DNA of 64,000 nt from Botryllus schlosseri (lineage: Eukaryota). The DNA is taken from the NCBI GenBank assembly GCA_051294905.1, contig CM119372.1:25484001-25548000 (forward strand). The letters run 5' to 3'. Position numbers and translations under genes: made by a program. A model generated the notes under the pieces. It did not search any database. It was not told the origin of the DNA and saw only the letters and a list, made by a program, of their open reading frames with translations. This document shows, one piece after another, positions 22,341 to 58,335 of this stretch (positions are counted from its first letter, which is position 1; each line of letters opens with the position of its first letter).

Positions 22341-22505
22341 ATTTCTTTTTACCCTCTCTCAGCACTCGTGAATAAGTCAAAGTCAAATGACCATAAATTA
22401 ATTAGTCATGTAGAGAGAGAATCATCATCATCATCATTTATTAATATTTTTACCCAATCAATACACCACACGATTGCGAATAATTATTTGTCAATCGTGC
22501 AGATC

Positions 22506-22799
22506 AGTAGTTTGATAAATGGGCGGAATGTGCCAAATCACGATTTAACTTAAACAAACAAGAATTATGAATATGAAAGATAGTGAAAGAATTAGCTCAT
22601 TCTCAATTCTGCAGCAATACTCGAGGGGATTTCCCTTCTGACTGTGCGGCAATTAAAAAAGGGGAATAATTAGAGAGAAAACGAACAAAGAATCTGGATT
22701 GACCTTTGTACTCAGACATGAGACTTGAGTACTTCTACTTGTACTTTTCCACTCCTGATTCTACCTCGCCTGACCTCTGGTACACGAGACTTGTGTATT
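22506..22799 (+). repeat. Left terminal inverted repeat of the Polinton
   Basis: Reverse complement of 38638-38930. The first 269 bp have a single mismatch (22632). Confidence 0.97.
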
Positions 22800-23204
22800 T
22801 AGTAATTTTTTTTTATATTTTCCCTCGAATAACAATGGATTGACATTTAATTTCAATGGTATGCACGCCGACGAATCGGTATAGTTCTCCTGGCTTGACT
22901 TGTCGTTCCGCGGTGGATTGATTAATCCAGCTACGTGTAAACACGATGGGATTTGGGAATATTTGTCCGTCAAACATGACGTCAGTATAGTATTTGTTCC
23001 TTCGGATCCGTATGTGAGATCCCGGTTCGTGTTTTAGGTGGATTGTCAACGCGTTCGGCCAGACGAAACGATGCAAGGTAACGATTCTGGTCTGCGTCAT
23101 ACTGTTGACCTCTTTTTGCTCCCTGGATAGTAGCGAGTATGATCTTTATGATGCCAACGACTCCCGAACGCTCGTAAAAAGACTATAACGTATGCTGTAC
23201 AAGG

Positions 23205-23210
23205 TTTATT
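23205..23210 (-). terminator. Polyadenylation signal AATAAA at the end of the structural gene block
   Basis: TTTATT on the plus strand, 37 nt beyond the protease stop, at the end of the co-oriented gene array. Confidence 0.55.
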
Positions 23211-23246
23211 GAACATACACAATCTGAAAATACAAGTCACGAGCGT

Positions 23247-23693
23247 TCATAAAGTAGATTTTTCTTTGTTTACAAAATCAAAAACGAGGCGATCATTCAC
23301 ACGTTTATCAGAACCAAAAGCATCTAAATAATCGAGGGTACCTACACCTTGACCCCTTCTAATTAGGAAAGCGGTACAATGTTCGCCGCACACAAACGAA
23401 CGTAAAGACTGTAATTGCACACTAGTGAAGGTATAATCGTCCGCGCCCAATAACCTATAGATCTCCTTCTTCAGAGGCGGAATCCCGAAAGAGTCGTGAA
23501 AGTGCGTGCCATCTTGATCGGCGAAGATACAGATCCAATGCGAGCCGCCCTTCGCGTTAGGGTCGTAATTGATAACGACTGCGTACGGCTTAGGTAGCTT
23601 TGCTGGCAATAAATCGATCGCAAAAGTACCGGCAAATAAATCTCGCGTGTCGCGGTGATTGAATAAAATATGATTAATTTGATCGGTATTCAT
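23247..23693 (-). CDS. Adenain-like cysteine maturation protease (148 aa)
   Basis: Catalytic motifs GGSHW (His), FHDSFG (Asp) and QLQSLRSFVCGEHC (Gln/Cys). The likely ATG at 23693 overlaps the MCP stop (ATGA). Confidence 0.93.
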   Translation of the reverse strand: MNTDQINHILFNHRDTRDLFAGTFAIDLLPAKLPKPYAVVINYDPNAKGGSHWICIFADQDGTHFHDSFGIPPLKKEIYRLLGADDYTFTSVQLQSLRSFVCGEHCTAFLIRRGQGVGTLDYLDAFGSDKRVNDRLVFDFVNKEKSTL

Positions 23694-24964
23694 ACGGACA
23701 CTACTTCGCGCTTCTCTGAGATCTCCAAAAGTTGTTGGTATTCTTTGAGACACAGTAGAGTCGCACCTTCAGGCAACCCCGCGGTAAGGGTCATGTGAAG
23801 CTTCACGGACCCGGTCTTCTCTAGTTGAAAGCAGCCTTGATGCGTACGGTCTGGGGTCAAATCGAAGGCAAACAGAGTGTATCCCGCCTTATAATTCTCA
23901 GAGTCGATAAAAAGATCTTCCTGAGCATCCCACTTCCCGGTGGATTGGTAGACGCTGAAAAACCCCTCGAGGTTTGTGTTTTTATCAAAGTCGAATCTGA
24001 AATTACGCCCGTACAAAAGCTTCCCGTTCACGTTGATAGCCAGATTTCCGACGTGATAGTGACAGAAATTAAAGGGGTTTCGAGTCTTACTACCGTTATA
24101 GGCAGCGGTCGGGACCAGACCAATCACGATTCGTCGAGGCATGACCCCGGAAATCAGCGTTTTCTCAATGGAGGTATCACCCGCTCCAAAAGAGTGATTA
24201 CTCATTTCGAGCTTTATAATAGGGTATTTCGCCGTGTGCGTACGAAGCATCGTTTTGTGTGCCAAACTGACAGAGTCTGAAACTTGAATTTGCTTGACGT
24301 GCAATTCCACTTTTTTCAGTATGATTTTAGAGTCGGCAGACCCGAGGAGACAGAAATCGTCATCGTTACGGATTAATCGCAACGACAGATCCACGTTATC
24401 CAGTAAATATCTGTCCTGGTCGAATAAACCGAGCGGTATCTTGCCGATGACCTCGAGCGTTGCACTGTCAGCGGTCAGGGCTTTTCGTGCCGTGAAGCCG
24501 ACGTTGTCTGCCGTGAAAGCATCCTGCTGTTTCATCGTATCCGGGATCCAGCCGATACATTTCAGATAGGTTTCGCCGGCCGCGCGAGAGCTATTTAGTA
24601 GATGGAAAATGAAGCTTTTGTAGGCGTGATTGTTGTCCGATGTGGTGATCAGCTTCGAGCCCAGATACAGATCGATCTGCTTGAATAAGGCGTCAAATAT
24701 ATCCGATACGACAGCGACGTTGTCTCCCCCGATCGTGGTGCAATCTTTTTTGGTGACTTGCAGTTGTATTTTCATAAACGAGCTGGACAAATCCAAGTAA
24801 TGATCGCTACCTTTCACGTTAATCTCAATGACATCGCCCAATTTATCCGGTGTAGCGATCAACGTGCTGGTGTCGGCGACCGCCGTTTGCGTCGGTGGTA
24901 CCGTGAAAATATCTAATCCGCTGTTGAGGCACTCGGCCGAATTTTCGTGCATCAATTTAGCCAT
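23690..24964 (-). CDS. Major capsid protein (double jelly-roll), 424 aa
   Basis: Polinton MCP motifs LDIFTVPPTQ, LFKQIDLYL, LFDQDRYLLDNVDL, PRRIVIGLV..AYNGS..NPFNF and GYTLFAFDLTPD. Confidence 0.93.
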   Translation of the reverse strand: MAKLMHENSAECLNSGLDIFTVPPTQTAVADTSTLIATPDKLGDVIEINVKGSDHYLDLSSSFMKIQLQVTKKDCTTIGGDNVAVVSDIFDALFKQIDLYLGSKLITTSDNNHAYKSFIFHLLNSSRAAGETYLKCIGWIPDTMKQQDAFTADNVGFTARKALTADSATLEVIGKIPLGLFDQDRYLLDNVDLSLRLIRNDDDFCLLGSADSKIILKKVELHVKQIQVSDSVSLAHKTMLRTHTAKYPIIKLEMSNHSFGAGDTSIEKTLISGVMPRRIVIGLVPTAAYNGSKTRNPFNFCHYHVGNLAINVNGKLLYGRNFRFDFDKNTNLEGFFSVYQSTGKWDAQEDLFIDSENYKAGYTLFAFDLTPDRTHQGCFQLEKTGSVKLHMTLTAGLPEGATLLCLKEYQQLLEISEKREVVSV

Positions 24965-25355
24965 CGAATATATCTCTACGTCTACGTTTCTTGTTTGACG
25001 TAGTACCTCCCCGCGCGCCCTTTTTAAGCTTTTTCGTGGCTTTTCGTTTACGACCCCCGATCGCGGTATCGAGAAGCTGTAGACCTCCTTCTTTACTCCG
25101 TGATATAGCGGATTGCTTGAACGAGCGCCCGGCCACCAAATCTTTTGCGATATTTGACCCGGTACGGAGGATTTGTTTCCCCAGTATCTTGGAGCCTTTT
25201 GACACTAGAGGTAAGACCGCCCGGCCTATGGTTCGAAAAATCGACGCGAGTCCGCTACCGCTTTGCCTGGACCCCCGGTAAAACCCGTAATTCCCAGCTC
25301 CGGTCTGATAGTGGTGCAACACGGCTTCTCGGTCACAACAATAGTGCACTTTCAT
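24957..25355 (-). CDS. Basic core/membrane-lytic virion protein (pVII/pVI-like), 132 aa
   Basis: QxGxG candidate protease sites (QTGAG, QSGSG) are followed by the amphipathic LASIFRTIGRAVLPLV and a K/R-rich C-terminus. It sits just upstream of MCP, as in other Polintons. Confidence 0.8.
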   Translation of the reverse strand: MKVHYCCDREAVLHHYQTGAGNYGFYRGSRQSGSGLASIFRTIGRAVLPLVSKGSKILGKQILRTGSNIAKDLVAGRSFKQSAISRSKEGGLQLLDTAIGGRKRKATKKLKKGARGGTTSNKKRRRRDIFDG

Positions 25356-25717
25356 AACGACACCCTGAGATGTATCGTGAGGTCCAAACCCGAGATGTCC
25401 AATAATTCACCATACTCGTCCCTTATATAGATGCAGAAATACTCGAAACGGTCGAGTCTGACTTTGGCGTAGTATCGATTTTGAAATATATGGTTTTGTC
25501 GCTCCCCCTCGTGTAGCGCAACGACTCTTAGCAACGGGACCAAAGCGTCACCCACCGGCGTCGACTCGATGTCATTGCAGTAGATAAAAGCGTAGAGGCT
25601 TTCACGCGACTCACGAACAAAGTTTATCTCCATAAGAGCAATCTCAAGACCTTTACAATCCATTCCGTGGGGTAGGGTAAATACGGGCCCGTCACCGGTC
25701 AGTGTTTGGAACGTCAT
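25352..25717 (-). CDS. Minor capsid (penton) paralog 3, minimal 121-aa single jelly-roll
   Basis: Motifs EIALMEINF and FIYCNDIE..VGDALVPLLRVV...IYIRDEYG..LTIHLR are shared with the two upstream paralogs. Confidence 0.8.
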   Translation of the reverse strand: MTFQTLTGDGPVFTLPHGMDCKGLEIALMEINFVRESRESLYAFIYCNDIESTPVGDALVPLLRVVALHEGERQNHIFQNRYYAKVRLDRFEYFCIYIRDEYGELLDISGLDLTIHLRVSL

Positions 25718-26471
25718 CTCGTAAGTGAAGGGTCAATTCAATGTCACCACATTTAAGTTCTTTTCCAAGAGAATCTCTTATGCTGATGCGTACGCTACGA
25801 AAGCTGTTGGCATCGGCGGGTAGGTAAAACGGTTTCCTGAATGATACGTGCTGTCGTTTCATTTCCGGTACCGTAACGGGGATGATTCGCAGCAGTCTGG
25901 ACATATAATCACCGACCGGGAGATGGCGCACGCAATCGCAATATATAAATAAATACTGAGATTTTACTATCGACGAGGTATACCACGCATCGAATTCAAT
26001 GTGCTCAACCTCGCGTAATGAGATCGGAACCTCTCCTTCCTCCGCGATGATGTCGTCAATATCGTATCTCTGATGCTCGTGTATGATACGGTAGTTACCG
26101 AAATTCGCGTAAGGCCCGAGCGTAGATGTGAGCAGAGAAGAATTCGGTGGGAATCCCTCGCATACCAATCGATTCTGGCTGGGCGTAAAGTACCAGTGAT
26201 AGCCGTTCACGAGTTCCTCGCTAATTCTTTGCATTAATTGATCGACATTATCGAAATCTCCGGTGGGTAACTCATAGACTTCGGTGACGTCTTTGACAAT
26301 CGTATTCCAGAAGCTCAAGGTCGTGGTGGGTTCTGTGATCACAATTCTATCTTGAAAATCATGGCTGAAGCTAATTTCTTGAAGAGCGATCTGTTTACCC
26401 TCCGATTCGATTTCAATCGGTAATTCAACCGTGAAATCGGGTCCGCTCCCGAATATCGTGATATAGCTCAT
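25692..26471 (-). CDS. Minor capsid (penton) paralog 2, 259 aa
   Basis: Motifs QIALQEISF and LFIYCDCV..VGDYMSRLLRIIPV...FYLP...ISIRDSLG..LTLHLR. Confidence 0.82.
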   Translation of the reverse strand: MSYITIFGSGPDFTVELPIEIESEGKQIALQEISFSHDFQDRIVITEPTTTLSFWNTIVKDVTEVYELPTGDFDNVDQLMQRISEELVNGYHWYFTPSQNRLVCEGFPPNSSLLTSTLGPYANFGNYRIIHEHQRYDIDDIIAEEGEVPISLREVEHIEFDAWYTSSIVKSQYLFIYCDCVRHLPVGDYMSRLLRIIPVTVPEMKRQHVSFRKPFYLPADANSFRSVRISIRDSLGKELKCGDIELTLHLRDDVPNTDR

Positions 26472-27271
26472 AACGCTTTGACGGCTCCTCGACGGATCAG
26501 TAGGGTCACTGTAACCGGAGCTGTTTTAAACGCGATAGGGTTATTGTTCTTGTCACGAAGATATACTCGTATATTTCGAATATTACTCTTGGCCAGGGGA
26601 AAGAAGTAAGGCTTATCATACACGCAGTGCTGTATTTTTCCTTCTTGCGCGGTCACCGGAACGCTTCGAAGGAGAGGTACTAGCTCGCTGCCGAATACAC
26701 GAGGTCTGATCAGATCGGTGTATATATAAATGGTGTCTACATCTTTCACGATGGTTTTCGGTCTGATTAAGAACTCTATTGGTTTTTGTTTCTTCAAAAC
26801 ATGATGTTCCACTGTAAAATAACGCGGAAACGTGTCCTCGATGCTGGTGAGACGCGGACCCGCACCACTGATTTTTTTGACCCGTATCAAGGGCTCGTCG
26901 GCCTGTGGAAATCGACTCTTGAGATACCTAAAGCTCAAGCCGAACACGCCACCGGTATATTGCTTGATTGTAATTTCTTTCTCGTATCGCAAGCGAAACT
27001 GTTCCAACAGATCCGGGACACTGCGATACTTGCCGGGCGGTATGTAATACACGTGACGATGCCCGCTGTCAGAAAATTCGATACCCGCACGCTTGTGGTC
27101 TACCGTGAACGTGGGCTGGAAGCTTACTGGGAACATGATCTCAGCAAGCGATGCCTCATATCTTTCTGTATCATATTTTAACTCGGAGAATAGTTGGGTT
27201 ACAAAATCGTTCGCGGTGTTAGCCTTAAAAACGCTCATTGAAGAATTACTCGGTAAAACCAGAAGAGTCAT
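26468..27271 (-). CDS. Minor capsid (penton) protein 1, 267 aa
   Basis: Canonical Polinton mCP N-terminus LVLPSNSS...NTANDFVTQL...EASLAEIMFP, and C-terminal YIYTDLI...PLLRSVPV...YFFPL...YLRD. Confidence 0.88.
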   Translation of the reverse strand: MTLLVLPSNSSMSVFKANTANDFVTQLFSELKYDTERYEASLAEIMFPVSFQPTFTVDHKRAGIEFSDSGHRHVYYIPPGKYRSVPDLLEQFRLRYEKEITIKQYTGGVFGLSFRYLKSRFPQADEPLIRVKKISGAGPRLTSIEDTFPRYFTVEHHVLKKQKPIEFLIRPKTIVKDVDTIYIYTDLIRPRVFGSELVPLLRSVPVTAQEGKIQHCVYDKPYFFPLAKSNIRNIRVYLRDKNNNPIAFKTAPVTVTLLIRRGAVKAL

Positions 27272-27434
27272 CCTCGTCGGCGGTTTGGAGAGACAGTACC
27301 CTAGTTAACGAAGATATATCCGTCTGGGTTTCGGTGAATAAGTTATACACAGTTACCCCCACGATAAAAAGCAGTATCGCGAGCTGTAGAACCACCAAAG
27401 GTATCCGTAACGTACCCCGCTGCGATAAATCCAT
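27246..27434 (-). CDS. Small single-pass membrane protein (62 aa), unknown function
   Basis: It fills the gap between integrase and penton 1 in the same orientation. It has a hydrophobic span IPLVVLQLAILLFIVGVTVYNLF and an acidic tail. Confidence 0.5.
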   Translation of the reverse strand: MDLSQRGTLRIPLVVLQLAILLFIVGVTVYNLFTETQTDISSLTRVLSLQTADEDDSSGFTE

Positions 27435-27464
27435 GATTACCACGGTCGAGTCACCGTCTCTGTT

Positions 27465-28466
27465 TTATACAAAACTGTCAACGTAAGAGTCCATCGATTT
27501 TGGATAACCCTCCCAGCGCACTAGATATCTCCGCTTGCGCCCTCTACCGATCACTCTCTGTATCGATTCTACGCGATAGACATCGTCTTTTTTATCGATG
27601 GCTTGTAATTCACTTTCGTAGAACGTTCCACTAATCACGTCCCCGTTATAATCTCGGATGGTGTACGTAGCGGGGCTCCCCAATTTCCGTGTGTGTACGT
27701 AAAATATCTCGCGAGTCCAAGATCCCGCAGTCCCTTTCGCAAACGTGGCACGTCGGGTGGTAATTCTCACTGGTTGATCGACGGGTAGCTTGGGTGACAC
27801 CGGAGGTCCGGTTCCGTTGTATAGTCTATCGAACACCAGAGACGCGTTGCTATTGGTAACCTCCGACGGTCGCATTAAAATCGCGGTGTGATACGTTTGG
27901 TTATAGCTCTCTGCGATATCACACAACACGTCGATGTAGCGATGTGTGCGGTTCTTGACAAAGTAGCGATTCAATATATTGCGGGTCGTACGAATTACCC
28001 GCTCTACGACGCTAGCCTTAGTATCAATGTTGGTAAAAAAGTGCTTGACGTGGTTGTCTCTAAAAAACCTCTGTATAACCGACCCCGTGAATTCTTTCCC
28101 GGCATCAGTCTGAACGACGTGTGGTCTCTTATGAGCGAATACCTGGTTGAAGCCCTCGATCATATCTATAGGACGCTTTCGTTTCGTGGCGTATAAAAAC
28201 ATATATTTCGAAAAACAACAAATTGACACCAACACATAACGATAGCCATCATTGCTACTAGAAATATTAGACAAGTCCATGAGGTCACTCTGGATCTGAA
28301 TAAATGGCCCGCCGACGATCGTCTTTTGTCGTTGAAATTTGCCTGTATACGGATAGAATAGGGTGTAGCTATCCTCTTGTTTCAAATCCTTCTTGTCGGG
28401 GTGCAAGTATTTACCGCGATAGCTCGCCGGGGCTTTGATATCAAAATATTTATCCTTACTCGTCAT
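27465..28466 (-). CDS. Retroviral-type (RVE) integrase with C-terminal chromodomain, 333 aa
   Basis: DDE motifs QSDLMD, QTDAGKEF and KASVVERVIRT, plus YNQTYH. The chromodomain reads YRVESI...YLVRWEGYPKSMDSYV. Confidence 0.95.
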   Translation of the reverse strand: MTSKDKYFDIKAPASYRGKYLHPDKKDLKQEDSYTLFYPYTGKFQRQKTIVGGPFIQIQSDLMDLSNISSSNDGYRYVLVSICCFSKYMFLYATKRKRPIDMIEGFNQVFAHKRPHVVQTDAGKEFTGSVIQRFFRDNHVKHFFTNIDTKASVVERVIRTTRNILNRYFVKNRTHRYIDVLCDIAESYNQTYHTAILMRPSEVTNSNASLVFDRLYNGTGPPVSPKLPVDQPVRITTRRATFAKGTAGSWTREIFYVHTRKLGSPATYTIRDYNGDVISGTFYESELQAIDKKDDVYRVESIQRVIGRGRKRRYLVRWEGYPKSMDSYVDSFV

Positions 28467-28908
28467 CGTCGTAGGCCGTCCACGACCCGTAGAGCTGGGG
28501 CGGCTTCCTGTTAGCTCGACGGCTACGTTTGATGATCTCTTGCAGTGGCGGTGATCTTTTGGCTATCTTGCTTGTGGTGGGGGTACTTGGAGACGACGGG
28601 GCTTTCGGTGTTACTTTCGAGGTGACCCGACCCGGCTTCACTTCGTGCAGTAATTCACGGAGAGTGGCTATCTGATCGTTCGTGAACCCGTTGGAGGTGT
28701 CGGTCATCTTCATCTGAAGAGGCTTGTCGATCTGACCCCGTTGACTTTTATACTTTGAGATGGCAGAGTTATACAAGGACAATTTCTTGTCGGCCGAAAC
28801 GTCCATAGTCAAAATCGCGCTGATCGATCGGTCCAACTCGGAGTTCAAATCAGTCGCGTTAGAGGGAGCTAGAGGGTTAGGCGATATGATCACTTTTTTG
28901 AAATTCAT
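28456..28908 (-). CDS. Conserved Polinton hypothetical protein, 150 aa
   Basis: LDRSISAIL..VSADKKLSLYNSAISKY resembles the helical motif of the small ORF usually found upstream of Polinton integrase. It overlaps both neighbouring genes. Confidence 0.7.
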   Translation of the reverse strand: MNFKKVIISPNPLAPSNATDLNSELDRSISAILTMDVSADKKLSLYNSAISKYKSQRGQIDKPLQMKMTDTSNGFTNDQIATLRELLHEVKPGRVTSKVTPKAPSSPSTPTTSKIAKRSPPLQEIIKRSRRANRKPPQLYGSWTAYDDDE

Positions 28909-29279
28909 TTTTTGCCAAAAACAGATTTCAACAACGATGCCGCCAAGGGGAGGATTGACAAGATACCGCTAATAAAACCTCCTCGTTGGGTGTTGGCGTG
29001 TAATACACGTCTCTTGGTCTTCAAGCTCAACTTTTTACTTGTCAGCTTTCGAATTTTGTCTTTATGCGGGTGTAAATTTTGTATATGGCGTTTTGACAGT
29101 CGCAGATTGCCGTTCAAAACATTCACACAGACTTCACAAAATGCCTTCACCAAACCGGGCGAGCTCCCCAATAATATATCCTTCCTTACCGCGGGCGACG
29201 CCTTGGACAGAAATTTCAAAGTCTCGCCGTGCTTCTTAATATAACAGTGACGTTTCGGCAGCGATTTGGTCCGAGCCAT
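28905..29279 (-). CDS. Basic Polinton virion protein with QRGG/F site and C-terminal amphipathic helix (pX/pVI-like), 124 aa
   Basis: Motif LVKAFCEVCVNVLNGN...IRKL...KRRVL..QRGGFISGILSILPLAASLL. Confidence 0.8.
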   Translation of the reverse strand: MARTKSLPKRHCYIKKHGETLKFLSKASPAVRKDILLGSSPGLVKAFCEVCVNVLNGNLRLSKRHIQNLHPHKDKIRKLTSKKLSLKTKRRVLHANTQRGGFISGILSILPLAASLLKSVFGKK

Positions 29280-29316
29280 TATGAATATAGTGTCAAAGTG
29301 CCGGCACTTTCGCTAT

Positions 29317-29958
29317 TTATAGTGGCGTGTACAACACGAGTTCATCCCCAGGAAACACCCCTGTTTTAACACGACTAGAATCGGGTGTGGCTTGCGTCAA
29401 ATCTATAAAAAGGTACCCGTGAGCGTTCTTTGTCGCATCGGCATACGCATCAACTAGAAACTTGGAGTTACCAGGGTACATTTGCTTGCCAAGCACTCGA
29501 ATCTGAGATCGATCTCTAGGATTACGCATGATAATCAAATACTGGGTGCTGAGACTGAGGTCCCTCGATCTTTTGGACTGGAAATATAAATTTTGGACCG
29601 CGAATATTGTGGTCACCGATTTATGATTCGCGTAGACTGTAAAAAAGGGGGTCACCCTGTCCGAAAATTCCATTTTATCGTCAATAATTAATAGAGTAGG
29701 ACAGGGGCGGCTTGTCGCCAACTCATCCAAAATGGAGAGATCCGAGTAAAACTCAACACCTTGCAGCTCGTCAAAGGAGTCTTGGTAAGCCGTATAGCAA
29801 TAGATAATTCTTTTAATTCGCCCCTTTGAAAGCTGATCGATATTTTTTATGACTTTAAATATAAAAGTACTCTTCCCCGAAAACGACGGTCCTGCCAAAA
29901 GACACGCCCTCCCTGTCGAGAAATCCATCACCAAGGCTGTTTTGACACGACGAGACAT
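29317..29958 (-). CDS. A32/FtsK-HerA-family genome packaging ATPase, 213 aa
   Basis: Walker A GPSFSGKS, Walker B LLIIDD, plus VQNLY, NPRDRSQI and GYLFIDL. Confidence 0.93.
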   Translation of the reverse strand: MSRRVKTALVMDFSTGRACLLAGPSFSGKSTFIFKVIKNIDQLSKGRIKRIIYCYTAYQDSFDELQGVEFYSDLSILDELATSRPCPTLLIIDDKMEFSDRVTPFFTVYANHKSVTTIFAVQNLYFQSKRSRDLSLSTQYLIIMRNPRDRSQIRVLGKQMYPGNSKFLVDAYADATKNAHGYLFIDLTQATPDSSRVKTGVFPGDELVLYTPL

Positions 29959-29976
29959 GTATTCACAAACACACTT

Positions 29977-29986
29977 CTATATATAA
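29977..29986 (-). promoter_or_regulatory. TATA-like box of the structural/integration gene block
   Basis: TTATATATAG lies about 20 nt upstream of the ATPase ATG, the first gene of the overlapping array. Confidence 0.4.
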
Positions 29987-30077
29987 CAAGGACAGGTACA
30001 CGAAAAAATATGGCGATTCAGAGCGTCACGCAAACCGTCCACACAGCGAATCTTACAATGTCCACGAGGCCGTCTTT

Positions 30078-30950
30078 TTACACCAGAAGCGAGGTGTCAT
30101 AATCGACACGAGAAGACGAGGCATCATCAGGGCTCAGCGGTGTCCTGGCCAAGGCTCGAGGTCTACGAGGGGGAGGGTAAGGTGATACCCGGCCGGGTGA
30201 CTTTTTTGTTATGATTTTAGTCAGATTCGGTCTTGGTAGCACTGGCGACTGATGTATGTCTCTGGCACGCTGTGGTGTCGCCACGACAAACGGGGCAGTC
30301 AGATTCGGTCTTGGTATCACTGGCGACTGATGTATGATGTCTCTGGCACGCTGTGGCATCGCAACGACAAACGGGGCGTCAACCACGGTAGGTGATGTGT
30401 CGACGGATTTAGGGGCGCGACGATCTTCTCCCGCTCGGAGATAACCCTGGTTCATGAAGCGGTATCGGTTAATGTCGTTTCCTTCATGAGTCAAGCGCTG
30501 ATCGCGGCTCTGTACGCTGCAGGCGGCACGATCGGTTGGGTCTGTGAAGCCAACTTGACGACGATTCAAGATACGGGCATCAGTCAGCAGTCGGCTCGTC
30601 ACACCATCGCCTTCATACGTGAACACAGGTAGAAACTGCAGCTCCGTCACACACCGCAACAGGTCGTTTCGAAAGCTCATCCATTCTAGAAGACAAAAGA
30701 TAGTTACACATGTGCCGGGTAATGACTATTACCGCTTGTTACCTGGTCTCAAGGTGGTGGCAATGTGTAGACGATCCTGCAACTCTTTCTTGAAGTGAGT
30801 AGTTTGCTGATCGGTCAGATTGTCTTCCAGCAGAATATCTTTCAGCACAGAGACACGATGCCAGTTGGCTTGGGTGTCGCGGTGAAGTCTATTGAGTGAA
30901 AGCTGGCCACAAACATGACTAATGAAATCGCTAGCTGAGTTGTGAGTCAT
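30078..30950 (-). CDS. Spliced Polinton gene of unknown function (exons 30950-30743 and 30685-30078, ~271 aa) with a Pro-rich repeat
   Basis: Donor CCAG|gtaaca (phase 1) and acceptor tcttctag|AA TGG ATG join two ORFs in frame across a 57-nt intron. A strong acceptor tttttcccag directly precedes ATG 30950. Confidence 0.55.
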
Positions 30951-31886: not shown

Positions 31887-34800
31887 TCATAGTTCCAAGG
31901 GTCTCGTATGAATACCATCTGATTCGACTATTCGCTTACAGTAGAAGTGAGACAAGGCCGATCGAAATTGCTCATAGGTAAAAATGGAAGCATTTTTTCG
32001 CACAAATCCAGAATTAATATCCCCATGTGGTTTTTTCTCAAACAACACTTTCCGGTAGATGTCAGCAGTCAGTTTGTTTACTTTCGAGAGCCCTTTGCAT
32101 GAGTACTTATCCTCATTACAATAATAAGTCTTTGCGGACAGACCAACAAAAATATTCGATTGTGCCTCAATTTTGAAAAGACCACTGGTCCGTTGATCAT
32201 ATCGATTACGAGCTTTACAACAGGCACGTTTATCATTGAACGAGAGAGGATTGGCCAAAAATTCATCACGGTGCTCGTCACAGGCGATTGCTGGAAAATA
32301 TTTGTGAAAATTTTCAAAAAATTCTGCTTGTTTTTCGGGTCGTACAACTTTTAGCAGGCTGTCAGAGGAGATTGCGCCGTACCAGGAATCAGTGTCCGAA
32401 TATGCTAGTGCGATGGACCGTGGCAGGAGGTAGGTGGACAGATACGAATGGAACCGTAATAAGGCCAATTTCGCATACCCATACACAAAGTACCCAATGT
32501 GGTTAGGTTGGTTCCAAACATGTTTTCTCAATTTCATGGACACCTCAAAAATATCTGGTGACAACTCAATCATTGATTTAAATCTGGAGTCATTTACCAA
32601 GACCATAGCTTTTTGGCGGTTAACAATCTTGACATCAGAATATTTTGTACAATTCGAGATAGTTTTACCTATACAGGAATTTGCAATGTCTTTATAGAAC
32701 TGCCCCAGTGGCTTCTGGGACGGGTCATCGTCAGCCCGTCTTCTAGCCTCGGTTATCGTATCTACAAGAGAATTGAAACATTCAATGGGTTCAAACTCGA
32801 TAGCTTGAAATACCTTAGTAACGATTAACCCGTTCTCGAGATACCACTTCAATAGTGGTGTTATTAACAATGTTTTTGTGGCCTGCAGAGTAGCGATCAA
32901 GAATTTCCGTGGCCGTTTCAAAAAACCATGTTGTTCAGCAAATGCTTTCATGTACGGGCCTATATCATCACGACTTACGTAAGCATGTTTGAACAGGGGA
33001 CAGAACTCACTAAAATGCTCCTTGAGGTGACTAGGCACATGAATATCGACCTCAACGGCCCCAAAAAATTGATCTTTTGACACCAACTCTAAGAGTTTCG
33101 AACTTGAAAGGACCCGACATTTCACCATTTTACTGGATTCGAGAGTTTGAATAAAGGCAGCTATATCACTTCGTTGGCGCATAATGACCCATTGACATTC
33201 TGTGATGTACTCCAATTTATACCCCACTTTTTGAATATACTGGATTTTACGCTGCGTCGCGGCCCAGCGGGCTTGACGATCCGGGCTGGCTCCCAACTCG
33301 CAGCCGTGACCGTGGTGAAAACATCCAAACAGCTCAAGTGCAACAGGCCCTTGTGGGGTCCTATAATACCCATCAATACAAATCTGGAGCAGGCCGATAC
33401 GATGCTCAGGACCATTGAATTGATGTTGGATTTTGACCCCCCGACAGTGCGCAATGTAGCTTAGCCATTGGTGAGCCATTTTTCCATAGAGCGGTGCCGT
33501 TTTTGTCCTGGAGAATAGAGTAAAATCTTCATTAGGTGACCACAGACAAGGATAGCCCCCCGGTAATCGTGAACGAAGAGTATCCAAATAGAGACAGTTG
33601 GCGTCGACCCCTAGCACCTGTTCTACAGGTAGAGCGTTATCACCATAGATTTGGGGTTTGATTTTTGTGACTTTAGCCTCTGCATATCGCAATGAAACAA
33701 CAGAAAGCCCGCCACGTAGATTTTCCCGTATCAAGGTGTGTATATGGCTATACTTTTGATTCAACAAGGTAAATACAGGTGGTATGCTATTAAACATAAA
33801 CCGTGATGCCAGAGACGGCAATGATATACCGTCTTTACTCATGTCAATTGAGTAACGAGCAAAGAGTTGCTTGTGCTTTGTGAGGGCCTCCAGTAACGGC
33901 CCGACATCTAAACTGACATAGAAAGATAGATAGTCACGAAAAGTAGTCATTTTATGTTCTGCCCACTTTGATTGACACCAAAGATATTGCTCATCTGTTA
34001 TATTAGACCGTTTCAGTTTGTTATAGAAATGTATGTGGTCTGGGAGAGATTTTTCATCCAATACCGATAAATCAGTGAAATAGTTATACGGAAAAAAGGC
34101 CTTCGTTGAAGCACAGTTATGACAACGTGTGTACGCATCATAACTTGTACCGGCGCCAAGATACAAGGTCACATCCAAAAATCGAAATCGATTAGTCGAC
34201 AAGGACATATACGACGTACCCCTCTTAACAATACTGATAGGGTCTGATAAGTACTCCACCAGATATGGGATAATCAAAGGTATATCATAGCGAGACCCAT
34301 TGAAAGAGAATACAGGTAATTGACTCAAATAATTCAAAAAACGATGTTTCAATAAGGTTGCCGGGCTCATACGCTTGACATCCGGCTCAGCGGTATGCAT
34401 TTCTTGAGCAATACAATCTAATCGCTCCAACACGTCATGAAATTGTTGACATAATGACTCAAAACAATCACTTTGGATCAATTCAAAACGTGACATCATT
34501 CTAGCAACCAGCGCCCCAGGGTCGCCATCACTAATCAGTACTTCTGGGGTCTCGTACCCTGGGTAATTACATGCGAAGGCCACCGCGGCCGGGATATGAT
34601 GATCTACATAGTGCACATTAGCAGTGTCGTTTGGGGTCGAGCCTTTTTGTAATATACTCTCATAGTCAAAAACCAAGTTATACGGGTAGAAACGAGATGG
34701 TTTGGGCACGATTATACCCAACTCGTCCAACGCTTCAAATATAGTAGGCTCAGGCTTGAACATACCCCCACGGTAGTGGTTAGGAATGCCTTTAAAACAA

Positions 34801-35765
34801 TTATGACGTTTGAGATAATATTTTGAACTGAACAGGCGATGACAGGTCTCACAGCTATAATTCTTACAATATAAGTTCAAATTTTTAATATAACATGAAT
34901 GTCTTCCTCCCTCTAAATGAACGTGAATTTTCAACCCCTCCCGAGCACCGTGCCGTAGTATATAACCGACCCCATCTTTCAATGTATATACACAGATGGA
35001 TACTTTAAGACATGACTCGACTTTATCTAGGTCGTTCATACACACACCAGAATCAGGGTCCCCATATAAAGCGGAATATTGTGCCACCAGAGAGAGTGTT
35101 TTAGATTGTAAGTCATCACCACGATAATTACCACCACAAAGCATAACAGCGACACAGCGAAATATACAATAATGATCGTCATAGGGTACACCATGTCGAT
35201 TTTTCATTAAATCCAAAACACTATGTGAATTCACAATAGACTTTGGGATTTCGATTGTACTACACCCAATTAATCTGAAGTCAGATTTGTACACGTAAAA
35301 GGTCACGTTTGTGACCGCCAAGACCGCAAATTTAGTATCGTCTCTTTGAAAGCGAGCACTCTCGAAGCCCGCGTCCAGGTCTATATCGCTTACAAATTGG
35401 TCAAAGTCACTACGATTGGCAATCATTTTAGGTGTATCCAACATAACACCAGCGTTCTCGGACGCATGATAGTATCTCAATTCGCTTGTCTCAACATTAT
35501 CAAGTATGTGGGCAAAGGCGTAATTGATTCTAAAACCATACTGCTGTGAGACGAAGATGTCCTGTAGATCGTTGATGACGTCACTGGGGTTGCGGCCGAG
35601 TATACGGAAATTGTGTAGGCTGCGTATACTGTGCGGTGCGAGTGTTGAGCTGCGAATGGAGTGCCAGTTTTCTTCCACGATCTCGATCAGATTTTCAGGT
35701 ATACCCAAGCTGCTTGGTTGTGCGAAATCAGACACAATTCTAACAAGGTGTCGTCGCCTAGACAT
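31887..35765 (-). CDS. Protein-primed family B DNA polymerase (pPolB) with N-terminal TP/OTU-like and Zn-finger regions and an inserted nuclease-like domain
   Basis: Exo motifs VFDYES, FNGSRYD and YVSLDV. Pol motifs GVDANCLY, KDIANSCIGK, YSDTDS and GLFKIE..AKTY. It is 1292 aa from MSRRRH (35765), which follows a tttccag acceptor. Confidence 0.96.
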   Translation of the reverse strand: MSRRRHLVRIVSDFAQPSSLGIPENLIEIVEENWHSIRSSTLAPHSIRSLHNFRILGRNPSDVINDLQDIFVSQQYGFRINYAFAHILDNVETSELRYYHASENAGVMLDTPKMIANRSDFDQFVSDIDLDAGFESARFQRDDTKFAVLAVTNVTFYVYKSDFRLIGCSTIEIPKSIVNSHSVLDLMKNRHGVPYDDHYCIFRCVAVMLCGGNYRGDDLQSKTLSLVAQYSALYGDPDSGVCMNDLDKVESCLKVSICVYTLKDGVGYILRHGAREGLKIHVHLEGGRHSCYIKNLNLYCKNYSCETCHRLFSSKYYLKRHNCFKGIPNHYRGGMFKPEPTIFEALDELGIIVPKPSRFYPYNLVFDYESILQKGSTPNDTANVHYVDHHIPAAVAFACNYPGYETPEVLISDGDPGALVARMMSRFELIQSDCFESLCQQFHDVLERLDCIAQEMHTAEPDVKRMSPATLLKHRFLNYLSQLPVFSFNGSRYDIPLIIPYLVEYLSDPISIVKRGTSYMSLSTNRFRFLDVTLYLGAGTSYDAYTRCHNCASTKAFFPYNYFTDLSVLDEKSLPDHIHFYNKLKRSNITDEQYLWCQSKWAEHKMTTFRDYLSFYVSLDVGPLLEALTKHKQLFARYSIDMSKDGISLPSLASRFMFNSIPPVFTLLNQKYSHIHTLIRENLRGGLSVVSLRYAEAKVTKIKPQIYGDNALPVEQVLGVDANCLYLDTLRSRLPGGYPCLWSPNEDFTLFSRTKTAPLYGKMAHQWLSYIAHCRGVKIQHQFNGPEHRIGLLQICIDGYYRTPQGPVALELFGCFHHGHGCELGASPDRQARWAATQRKIQYIQKVGYKLEYITECQWVIMRQRSDIAAFIQTLESSKMVKCRVLSSSKLLELVSKDQFFGAVEVDIHVPSHLKEHFSEFCPLFKHAYVSRDDIGPYMKAFAEQHGFLKRPRKFLIATLQATKTLLITPLLKWYLENGLIVTKVFQAIEFEPIECFNSLVDTITEARRRADDDPSQKPLGQFYKDIANSCIGKTISNCTKYSDVKIVNRQKAMVLVNDSRFKSMIELSPDIFEVSMKLRKHVWNQPNHIGYFVYGYAKLALLRFHSYLSTYLLPRSIALAYSDTDSWYGAISSDSLLKVVRPEKQAEFFENFHKYFPAIACDEHRDEFLANPLSFNDKRACCKARNRYDQRTSGLFKIEAQSNIFVGLSAKTYYCNEDKYSCKGLSKVNKLTADIYRKVLFEKKPHGDINSGFVRKNASIFTYEQFRSALSHFYCKRIVESDGIHTRPLEL

Positions 35766-35875
35766 TCTGGAAACAAAAAACACAGAATCAATAACAGCTA
35801 GCACAAAACACACATTAATACATATGATATTACAGCATAAGCATGCAATAAAAACATGATAGCACACCAAAACAG

Positions 35876-38637: not shown

Positions 38638-38930
38638 AATACACAAGTCTCGTGTCCAGAAGTCAGGCGAGGTAGAATCAGGAGTGGAAAAGTACAAGTA
38701 GAAGTACTCAAGTCTCATGTCTGAGTACAAAGGTCAATCCAGATTCTTTGTTCGTTTTCTCTCTAATTATTCCCCTTTTTTAATTGCCGCACAGTCAGAA
38801 GGGGAATCCCCTCGAGTATTGCTGCAGAATTGAGAATGAGCTAATTCTTTCACTATCTTTCATATTCATAATTCTTGTTTGTTTAAGTTAAATCGTGATT
38901 TGGCACATTCCGCCCATTTATCAAACTACT
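38638..38930 (-). repeat. Right terminal inverted repeat of the Polinton
   Basis: Reverse complement of 22506-22799. It ends ACTACT followed by TSD CAGATC. Confidence 0.97.
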
Positions 38931-38946
38931 CAGATCATAAGAAATA

Positions 38947-51994: not shown

Positions 51995-52957
51995 TTTAAT
52001 ACCGACAACGCGCTGGTTAATATCAGCCCGGGTCCTACGTAGGTCCCGATCAGCCAGTCGAATTTGATCGGGAAATGGTGCGAATTTAATTATCCAGGTG
52101 TTATTGCAGCAAGAGCAATATGGGCGCATGCCGCAACCTAATCATTAGAAATACAAGTCCCGATTGTCTGAAATTCGATCCGCGATATGGTTGCGCCCTA
52201 TAGGGCCCGTCCAGCAATGAAGTCTATTGGAACATAGAAGGTTCCCGCTCAAACTAATCCAATAAATTCAGAATTTCCGCCACCGAGAATCTCTTGTTGC
52301 ATCAATATTTGACAGCGTAATTCAACGCCGTGCACTGCACAATGCGTATTGTTAATAACAAATCAAACACCGACAAGTGTCATAGAGGGAATACGAGTGT
52401 ATAAAGCAGAGAAGAACTAGTAGCCTAGAGATGTTAGAAAACGAGAAAGCGCGCATCTAATCAGTAATTCCTCAACTTGCGTACAGCACAATGGTGTTCC
52501 GAGTCCGACATCGCGACAATAGACACTTACGTGACCTTTGACACGGACCAATCAGGTTGCAGCAGGATGTAAACAAAGATCAAGCCCGGGCAAACTTACA
52601 ATGAGCTCTTATGGAGAAAGGTTGAAAAATGAAGATATTTAGCAAAATGACATTGAAATTGGGATAGCTGGCTTTGATGAATGTTAATAACGTATAGCTA
52701 GTATGTATTTACAGTGTTCTAACCCAGAATAAACATGAATGGTGGCAAGCACGCATAAGCATGGCATGTCCAAATTAATGGATTTCTAACAACGCTAGGA
52801 TGAAGCAACTATTGCTGTATTATCCTTAGTCGTATGCAATACTATAAGATTTTCGTACCGAATAGCATGTATTAGAGGAATCTTGAGACAGGATAGGTGG
52901 GGTATTCATTACGTGTGCTCGGTGTTATATGTGTTCTATTTATAGAATCGTATATGG

Positions 52958-55724: not shown

Positions 55725-58335
55725 ATATATCAGAACCTATAATCTGAAAATAAATCATGGTTACAATATCTACTGCATCATCGCAGTCTCTGAGGAAATG
55801 TCTGTTTCCTTACTTACCCTGACTTACAAGTGCAAGGTGAATCAATACTACATTTTCTGAGATATTTCCATTGGGTGTGGTATCTCACTTTTCTGCAAAT
55901 TGTGATAACATTGGCTGTTCACAATAGAATATTGCTTCCACAATAAGAGAGGATTGTCTCCTCAATCTTTATCCCTCGTGTACGTAGCCTTCCATCAAAT
56001 ACTTCGTAGATTTCTCCGCGGAGGTAAAATAAAATACTGTTCCACTCAAATCCAAAAATCCGATAGATTCTCCATGTAGCTTTCAATCAATATCATCATC
56101 ATATCATCAATATACGCCAAAATTGTGCTGTGTGGCAGCAGCTATATTTTTCTACCATATATTTCTGAACACGAGATAAGCTTGAAAATTTTGCTCGTGA
56201 CTTGAGCCTATGAAATCGTCAAAATACGCATTACCACAATCTTGTAGTATAGTATACAACAATCGTTGCTTATAATCCGAAAAATTGTCAAAACTCCATG
56301 CATTTGGACACACCATGCTGATGCGTGCTTGCCACCATTCAAGTTTATTCTAGGTTAGAACACTGTAAAAACATACTAGCTATGCGTTATTACCATTCAT
56401 CAAAGCCAGCTATCCCCAATTCAATGTCATTTTGCTAAAAATCTTCATTTTTCACCCTTTCTCCATAAGAGCTCATTGTAAGTTTGCCCGGGCTTGATCT
56501 TTGTTTACATCCTGCTGCAACCTGATTGGTCCGTGTCAAAGGTCACGTAAGTGTCTATTGTTTCCTCATTATAAGTACGACATTTGAGCTGCATTGCTGC
56601 ATTTCCCGATAAAAGTTAGCATTGATGCCTTGTTAGAGTAATGAATATGCGCACTATGCGTATGGATGACTTTCAATTCGCAGGCATACACAAACACACT
56701 GTCCTATTTCGCGCTCCAATTAAAAAGACTATCATGAAACTAAATCAAGAATTATTTTGTAAACGAATATGCGCACAAATACAATTTAATTGAGAGAAGT
56801 GGAACGTGAATTCGCTCGTCTGGTACAGAGAGGAGATAGTGTCACGTGTGTCGAAATCGACGTCGTAAACGAGGTCGCTTCGATTTTATTCGATTACTAA
56901 TCACGGATTACAATGTATTGGGACGTTTTAAGCACTACTTTAAGCTGCGTATTCAATTATTCGCGCGCGAATCGGTTAATAGTAAATAGTTGGCACTTAC
57001 GCGATATCACGGACTCGCTAATTGACAGGGCGGACGGCGGGCGTTTAAGCATTTTGTATGGGGTGGCCGCCACCCCATAATTATGTCATTGGGTGGCTGA
57101 GCCACTCCGCCACCCCGTAACTCGGCGCCTATGACCTTTCATATATGATGTCATAACATTTTGACGCAAAAACGTATTTTGCAATATTATGCAACACAGA
57201 TACCAGAGGAAAACGATGGAAGTTCTGTAGTGGTTGAAAATAAGACAAAATAAGGACGCAAGTCGAAAATAAGGACAGTTGAGTTTTCTAAGACGTGGCC
57301 CTTAAAAATAAGGACAAATCTTAGAAATAAGGACGGTATGGCAACCCTGTATATTAGTACTATGAAAGGCAGGGTATAGTATAGACGGGAGGCTCGATAT
57401 AACAGAGTCATTATAGTTGAGCCACCCAGACAGGAAACAAATAAACCAGCGAACAAACGTTATGGAGTCTTGCACTGCTACAAAATGATCGGACTACACC
57501 GTATTAACAACGGCATTGGCGTATGGCCGTAGACGAATGAACGAAGTAGAAAGGCGGATGGTATGTGTTCGCTGTCCGTTCCGTCATTCATTCATTTCGT
57601 TCAAAGCACTACAGGATTGGGATACCACTAAAAGATAGGAAGCAGTCGAAACGACTTGGAATAGGGCTGTTTTTACATTTTTATACAGAAAACTGAGATT
57701 CCTATGAATATCCCGTTTTTTGCTCCTATCTTCGGATTCAACCAACGAAAAATTTCGAACGTTTTGCACAGTCGTCATGAACTAACTGAGTGTCAATACT
57801 TTCCACAGTTGATTGAACACGTAATACAAAAGCAAACGATCGGCATTCCGATCCTCTACGGATGGCAGCTTCTGTTATGTTTTTTTGCTCTCTTGATTTG
57901 ACGTCATATATACAGAGCATATTCTTCCGCCACCGAGATCTCGTCTGGTTGGCATCGGTCAGCGCTGCTTTACACTTGATGCTTTTCTCGAGCGATTCGT
58001 GTGCTAAATTTAGACCGCAAATAAAAATAGATGAATAGTGCGGGTATGTTTGAAGGTAGCATGCGTACTGACGAGTTATTTATTTTGGTTTGGTGGTATG
58101 TTCACATTGATTGCTGAGATGTCAAATCGGGGAATTGAAGTTCGATGAGACGTTTTGATTGATGAATTGTTTCACTTTCTACAATTGTCTCAAATTGATG
58201 ATAAATTTTTTCGCCATTGCGGTTGGTGTTACGCCGCTACGATTGTATTGTGTGAAAAGATTCATTTGTTGCATTCTTATACAAGCCGATTTGGCACTGA
58301 GATAGTTAAGTAGTGAACTGTAGCTAAACTATACG

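Follow-up and report, generated by a model that had tools for sequence, protein, structure and literature searches.

An old, ordered triplet of predicted penton-base proteins in the Polintons of Botryllus schlosseri

Introduction

The vertex protein of Polintons (PX) and of adintoviruses (Penton) is a single jelly-roll protein that is encoded beside the double jelly-roll capsid gene and usually carries an insert in its DE loop, and one penton per element was described for these groups (Krupovic 2014, PMC4028283; Starrett 2021, PMC8502044; these and the other articles cited here were available in part, and our statements refer to those parts). In this study, we describe a Polinton that lies in a 64,000-nucleotide stretch of the Botryllus schlosseri genome (GenBank contig CM119372.1, positions 25,484,001 to 25,548,000), hereafter the window, in whose coordinates the features are given. 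Unlike the published elements, this Polinton has three such genes in a fixed order, here named A, B and C, of which two are crowned (i.e., predicted to carry the DE-loop insert) and one is bare, and all three are under purifying selection. Each of the three types was found to be orthologous across four diverged lineages, with about 120 copies in this one genome.

Departures from the single, crowned penton are on record, as a preprint on adintoviruses notes 'duplicate Pentons' for two contigs and, for three, 'no DE loop insert' (Buck 2024, PMC11071296). Among the literature on two, three, multiple or paralogous pentons, Polintons included, we found no conserved penton set. A preliminary description of the stretch had offered a hetero-penton vertex, alternative receptor-binding vertices or a penton turned cement protein as candidate explanations, and had regarded the arrangement as an unusual virion design. 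This view stands insofar as we found no conserved three-penton set in print, but it is tempered by the duplicate and insert-less pentons recorded in the available text for a few adintoviruses.

Vertices that are not uniform have been solved in two other viruses. In the chlorella virus PBCV-1, the protein P1 is found at eleven vertices whereas its paralog P1v1, with a large DE insertion, is found at the unique vertex; the jelly-roll bases of the two are near-identical at about 10% sequence identity, and the far larger DE insertion forms a crown in one of them (Shao 2022, PMC9617893). The paralogs in the window likewise appear to have a conserved base with differing DE insertions. PBCV-1, however, is a giant virus, its unique vertex bears a spike, and it has two paralogs instead of three. 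The P1 and P1v1 genes are not known to be arranged in tandem.

In the tectivirus PR772, the penton is made of three copies of P5, whose N-terminal part forms the base, and two copies of the bare P31, which avoids steric clashes (Reddy 2019, PMC6750898). As far as their sequence relationship goes, C would correspond to P31 in being bare and B to P5 as the closely related paralog that adds an outward extension to the same base. However, P5 carries its extension at the C-terminus, as a collagen-like stalk and knob, and not as a DE-loop insert, and PR772 is a bacterial virus. Another small single jelly-roll penton, VP14 of Singapore grouper iridovirus (SGIV), is described as 'with no apparent top crown' (PMC10090177); it is crownless like C but is the sole penton of that iridovirus.

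Sequence Relationships of the Three Paralogs

Three open reading frames (ORFs) on the minus strand, A (267 amino acids (aa); 26468..27271), B (259 aa; 25692..26471) and C (121 aa; 25352..25717), are true paralogs. In BLASTP comparisons, C matched B with an expectation value (E) of 3e-14 (38% identity over the C-terminal 82 aa, with a separate N-terminal match of 46% over 35 aa), B matched A with E 4e-13 and C matched A with E 7e-7. Twenty columns were invariant in the three-way alignment, and the two motif blocks that the preliminary description had read from the ORFs, an N-terminal (E/Q)xxLxEIxF strand and a C-terminal IY(C/T)..G..LLR..V block, were both visible in it. The N-terminus of A has the canonical form LPSNSS..F..NT, while B has a derived N-terminus, MSYITxxGxGxxF, that is common to C. 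On this alignment, B and C are a derived pair, being each other's closest relatives and having their own N-terminal arm in common.

The insert of A (about 130 aa) and of B (about 135 aa), here called the crown, falls between residues 33 and 38 of C, where C has a six-residue loop. The two inserts had been taken to be unrelated. In a profile-profile comparison, their first approximately 43 columns, around a P.G.Y....L motif, were found to align with 80.6% probability and E 1.3e-5, while no similarity was detectable in the remaining 85-90 residues or so. Wholly unrelated inserts were thus rejected, and the earlier statement holds for the remaining residues.

No family was found for A, B or C in Pfam and PHROGs, and a profile search among PDB sequences had no significant match (best E 0.056). 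A word-indexed protein search returned one match for A, none for C and three for the C-type profile. Scanning IMG/VR with an alignment (A4) gave no relatives.

Predicted Structures

The AlphaFold model of A, built from a 97-sequence alignment, has a mean predicted local distance difference test score (pLDDT) of 84.4, with 95-98 in the core blocks. Foldseek placed the mavirus penton 6g41 first (E 4.8e-7, probability 1.0), followed by Sputnik and many adenovirus penton bases, and gave a probability of 1.0 to mavirus, Sputnik and adenovirus alike. In VIA-align, only pentons were found at ranks 1-30 (Z 7.0-13.9). Some 230 residues of A, insert included, align to the adenovirus, mavirus and Sputnik pentons, which indicates that the insert of A is the usual penton insertion domain. 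The model of A is hence that of a penton with a typical DE-loop insertion domain.

The model of C has a mean pLDDT of 95.0 and was searched by VIA, independently of Foldseek, among 48,161 chains. All the top seven matches were pentons (Z 7.8-12.2), and the next chain, which is unrelated, scored 6.1. The Sputnik penton 3j26_N ranked first (Z 12.2, 121 of 121 residues, root-mean-square deviation 2.5), followed by the mavirus penton 6g41_A (12.0), PBCV-1 6ncl_a6 (11.7), Emiliania huxleyi virus 201 (EhV-201), PBCV-1 8h2i_bG (10.0), fowl adenovirus (8.3) and SGIV 8hif_y3 (139 aa; 7.8). We take the last chain to be VP14 from its length, as the database output does not say so. The penton identity of A and C in the preliminary description is thus borne out by the models, as is its reading of the 121-aa ORF as a core-only version, since the predicted bare jelly-roll superposes on solved pentons over its whole length. 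Mavirus (6G41/6G42) and Sputnik (3J26 chain N) pentons are the best structural matches of the A and C models, and for C they align at Z 12.0-12.2 over 118-121 residues. Sequence identity to these pentons is 7-11%. Both of these pentons have an insertion domain whereas C does not; to our knowledge, virophages encode one penton.

The insertion site of A and B lies between strands 3 and 4 of the C model, a position conventionally called the DE loop. The insertion domain is present in A by structure and in B by alignment, and it is absent from C, which is modelled as a complete penton-base jelly-roll without the DE-loop crown. The missing insert does not exclude C as a penton because insert-less pentons are already on record in the available reports. 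In BFVD, C was best matched by A0A7D4ZXD8 (E 6.5e-8, TM 0.78), a Drosophila-associated adintovirus 2 protein of 161 aa that is uncharacterised, and bare pentons may therefore sit unannotated in deposited adintovirus genomes. A complex prediction of A, B and C, run without alignments and without controls, gave a score of 0.02 with C as partner against a mark of 0.34, a score to which we attach no weight in either direction.

Selection in Sister Copies

The host genome (495 Mb in 219 contigs) contains twenty copies of the window's Polinton family, in which B has an identity of 84-100%. We compared all nineteen sister loci (DNA identity 93.6-99.9%) and calculated pooled Nei-Gojobori ratios of nonsynonymous to synonymous substitution rates (dN/dS), with gapped or partially aligned copies excluded from these ratios and from the variant counts. 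A was full-length, gapless and open in seventeen of the nineteen sister copies, the exceptions being a 5-base deletion in L009 and 26 unaligned bases at the start in L018; its dN/dS was 0.196 over 18 copies, with 53 synonymous and 35 nonsynonymous variants (synonymous excess p 6e-14). For B, which was open in eighteen (L019 has small gaps), the corresponding values were 0.181 over 19 copies, 61 and 52 variants, and p 5e-14. C was open in all nineteen and gave 0.109 over 20 copies, 17 and 12 variants, and p 2e-5. When each variant was counted once, the nonsynonymous to synonymous ratios were about 0.2 for each gene. Each of A, B and C is under purifying selection. Pseudogenes or chance ORFs were rejected on these grounds, in agreement with the preliminary description, for which pseudogenised sister copies would have told against the idea.

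The same values weigh on the explanation that B, C or both are redundant leftovers of duplication that are drifting to loss. What speaks for it is that single-penton relatives exist in the published material, and nothing beyond that, while the open frames of the sister copies, the low dN/dS of all three genes and the orthologs of each type in four lineages (see below) contradict it. We consider this explanation highly improbable.

Within the genes, the ratio was higher in the insert than in the core (0.29 versus 0.11 in A and 0.27 versus 0.16 in B), so the inserts evolve faster yet are constrained. Faster crowns would fit surfaces that face outward. They would also fit a different explanation, in which A, B and C form interchangeable homopentamers with no fixed architecture, their mix setting receptor use or tissue and host range and the bare C serving as a non-binding filler. 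Here, crowns that evolve 2-3 times faster than the cores are what would be expected of host-facing surfaces, and about two thirds of the crown length differs between A and B. However, purifying selection acts on the crowns (0.27-0.29), in which no signs of diversifying selection were seen. The strict gene order and the presence of all three types across lineages of 26-40% identity, described next, suggest fixed roles, and we regard freely interchangeable pentons as unlikely.

Conservation across Polinton Lineages

Twelve further loci of the host genome were selected, comprising all five at 63-65% identity, the one at 38% and six from abundant distant matches. With a family hidden Markov model, the type order A, B, C was found, at least in part, in all twelve. 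Seven of them have three full-length ORFs, of either 267, 260 and 121 aa or 276/277, 223/225 and 130/131 aa, and each of the remaining five has one member in truncated, split or displaced form. A copy of the 63-65% lineage (L022) has its C-type gene in two pieces (G000:C7:29912300-29912533 and 29930150-29930293) that are about 17.6 kb apart, as if split by a later insertion.

For nineteen of the first twenty B-type matches of the abundant lineages, a C-type match follows just downstream on the same strand. The genome has about 100 such C-type matches, nearly all without stops. Three other Polinton lineages, much more diverged and with about 100 copies, thus have the same ordered triplet of a crowned A, a crowned B and a bare C. 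The ordered triplet is the norm in this genome and not a one-off. This is the outcome that the preliminary description had named as telling against an oddity of the single element, triplication proving routine in the clade, and here the triplet occurs in four lineages out of four.

The age of the triplication was apparent from an all-against-all BLAST of twelve proteins from the four lineages, between which identity is only 26-40%. Scores within a type were 149-171 bits for A, 94-123 for B and 62-66 for C, compared with 33-90 bits across types. As the proteins group by type across lineages, the triplication is older than the split of the four lineages, and a recent local duplication was rejected on the same grouping. 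Finding the ordered triplet in all four lineages removes the one-off oddity and makes a conserved, non-redundant design with three pentons more likely.

Relatives outside the Host Genome

A profile of A, B and C matched 5006 representative proteins at E <= 0.001, mostly of 240-290 aa and none of them named. Three public proteins of 276, 223 and 131 aa are each recorded on a 7972-bp contig. In the ESM Atlas, C fell near unnamed clusters of 115-138-aa eukaryotic proteins (score 0.98), in which molluscs and nematodes are commonest among the few recorded members, a lead only.

When public proteins were scored by type, 149 of 160 gave the highest score with the A profile. This bears on the explanation that only A is a vertex protein and that B and C kept the jelly-roll and moved to another conserved job, such as that of a cement or peripentonal protein, of an assembly chaperone or scaffold, or of a regulator by which assembly is capped or blocked. 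In addition to the type scoring, only A has retained the wider family's N-terminal motif, the different arm common to B and C could mean different neighbours in the particle, and most related elements have one penton in the available reports. Purifying selection would be compatible with any conserved function. On the other hand, the C model superposes over its full length on penton bases, the core motifs are kept in A, B and C alike, and we know of no cement protein of this virus group with the penton fold. Moreover, paralogs remain at the vertex in the solved precedents as far as described (PMC9617893, PMC6750898). We find a role of B and C away from the vertex doubtful, though it is the alternative that we take most seriously.

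Two penton units within one predicted protein were found in ten of the best 150 representatives, and in five of the ten a bare unit is followed by a crowned one (P0019, P0024, P0045, P0073 and P0143, each with a methionine at the start of the second unit). The other two-unit proteins are P0008, P0009, P0011, P0032 and P0044. If the fusions are real, these proteins are tandem single jelly-rolls. On these predicted proteins, other elements also multiplied the penton.

The Element and its Gene Content

The element is bounded by terminal inverted repeats (TIRs) of 275 nt at 22506..22780 (+) and 38656..38930 (-) that are 99% complementary to each other. Both ends start with AGTAG, and an identical CAGATC flanks them on either side (22500-22505 and 38931-38936). 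The repeats and the same six flanking bases mark the element as a 16.4-kb insertion with a perfect 6-bp target-site duplication, which we take to be a Polinton hallmark. By its gene content, it is an intact Polinton/Maverick (an adintovirus-like provirus). The near-perfect TIRs and the perfect target duplication make it look young and recently integrated. A sister copy on another contig (L001, G000:C14:14363800-14366500) has 99.9% identity to the element over 2433 bases and, together with the TIRs and the intact target duplication, points to very recent transposition or infection.

On the minus strand, the gene order is a 1327-aa ORF, a P-loop nucleoside triphosphatase (NTPase), an integrase, A, B, C, a 132-aa ORF, a 424-aa protein and a 168-aa protein. 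The 1327-aa ORF (31887..35870, minus strand) contains a YSDTDS motif and had no match in Pfam or PDB sequences; from this motif we presume it to be the DNA polymerase PolB. The P-loop NTPase (213 aa; 29317..29958, minus strand) is a putative packaging ATPase with weak P-loop/AAA matches in Pfam (E 0.0035-0.16), and the integrase (27465..28466, minus strand) matches rve (PF00665, E 5.9e-8) and, weakly, a chromodomain (PF00385, E 0.015).

A, B and C are located within the capsid module, directly upstream of the 132-aa ORF and the putative major capsid gene. In the literature, PX, the penton gene of Polintons, lies immediately upstream of the capsid gene or one gene off (PMC4028283, in the part available), and the location of C, B and A agrees with this. 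The 424-aa protein (23690..24964, minus strand) is a putative double jelly-roll major capsid protein. It had no direct Pfam match, and its assignment follows an ESM Atlas lead, the nearest clusters (score 0.98) having the domain PF21738 (DJR-like_dom) in 14-30% of their members. The 168-aa protein (23247..23753, minus strand) has a weak papain-fold match in Pfam (E 0.17), and we assume it to be an adenain-like cysteine protease from its gene position and the usual gene content of Polintons.

The 132-aa ORF (24957..25355, minus strand), between C and the major capsid gene, belongs to no family in Pfam or PHROGs and shows the strongest constraint of any gene in the module, with a dN/dS of 0.067 over nine full-length copies. 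Its variants in the nine copies comprise 27 synonymous and 7 nonsynonymous changes (ratio 0.09). The middle of the protein is hydrophobic or amphipathic and its C-terminal tail is rich in lysine and arginine, reminiscent of the pX-like membrane-active core proteins of adintoviruses as described in the available text (PMC8502044). The late module (23690-27271, minus strand) is operon-like, with overlaps of 4 nt between A and B, 26 nt between B and C, 4 nt between C and the 132-aa ORF, 8 nt between that ORF and the capsid gene, and 64 nt between the capsid gene and the protease. Elsewhere in the window, a separate pair of 277-nt inverted repeats (52516-52792 and 56285-56561; 94% complementary, 3.5 kb apart) suggests a different transposable element.

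Transcription

Two RNA sequencing (RNA-seq) runs of the same species label were searched, about 6% of each being examined. The only part of 23200-30000 with clear cover was 29783-30000, at a depth of 4-9 in both runs. Reads have a non-templated poly(T) stretch ahead of 29940 on the plus strand, placing poly(A) ends at about 29940, which indicates a minus-strand transcript whose polyadenylation site lies just within the ATPase ORF, at its start. The transcript ending at about 29940 presumably comes from a 200-aa gene at 30078-30680. Two contig runs (X1 and X2) cover the entire window evenly and may be DNA.

Discussion

The explanation that we prefer, at about an even level of confidence, is that A, B and C, which lie in the Polinton capsid module, make up a set of three penton-base (vertex) proteins that is old and conserved and whose members do different vertex jobs. 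Three penton copies that are old and kept by selection, two of them crowned and one bare, make it probable that the corners of the Polinton shell are built from more than one kind of subunit. In such a shell, the jelly-roll base common to all three would form the shell itself while the outward DE-loop crown varies, and the three proteins would be retained because their tasks at the five-fold corners differ. With a common base and differing crowns, the corners of the virion could vary in how many crowns they have or of which kind.

Since A has the N-terminal motif of the family whereas B and C have another motif and are mutually closest, A would be favoured for homopentamers at the ordinary vertices and B and C as a pair. 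B and C might work together by mixing in one ring, in which the bare C would relieve crowding of the crowns or a symmetry mismatch in a manner like that of P31 and P5 in PR772. Alternatively, they may form a special vertex like that with P1v1 in PBCV-1; a special vertex is plausible because the elements encode a putative packaging ATPase. Among the arrangements open to a set of three vertex proteins, mixed B/C rings and vertex-specific homopentamers each take a similar and minor part of our confidence, and other arrangements take the rest. A fixed plan, with A at the ordinary vertices and with B and C co-assembled into mixed rings or into one special vertex for packaging or entry, is possible and we put it forward tentatively.

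Several observations weigh against a set of three vertex proteins. In the examined 6% or so of the two RNA-seq runs, almost no reads fell on A, B and C, the depth being 0 in all bins but one. The single penton unit is the rule in 139 of the best 150 representatives, which suggests that extra copies are not needed for basic closure of the shell. Most adintoviruses have one clear Penton in the available part of the preprint (PMC11071296). Clear B and C types were found only in P0007, P0156, P0161 and P0162, which are close matches to the lineages of the host genome, and the three-penton design may be confined to one host group. The two-unit fused proteins are automatic gene calls in which the fusion is seen at the protein level only, and B is assigned as a crowned penton by its homology to A and C. 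Finally, we infer both the presence of all three proteins in the particle and their arrangement there; Polintons of this kind are known from genes and not from particles.

If the fixed plan outlined above is true, the Polinton/adintovirus group would have its first vertex design that is not uniform, and the fused bare and crowned units found elsewhere would represent the same partnership in one polypeptide. The triplet links the animal elements to the two solved non-uniform pentons, those of PR772 and PBCV-1. The small bare copy will escape annotation pipelines that stop once one penton has been found. The triplet also provides a concrete protein set for expression and cryo-electron microscopy. 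Polintons and adintoviruses are considered to hold a central place in the origin of many eukaryotic DNA viruses, and their capsids have been assumed to be of one hexon and one penton. A set that selection has kept in more than 100 proviral copies argues that real particles are made now or were made recently, with vertices that are specialised or mixed.

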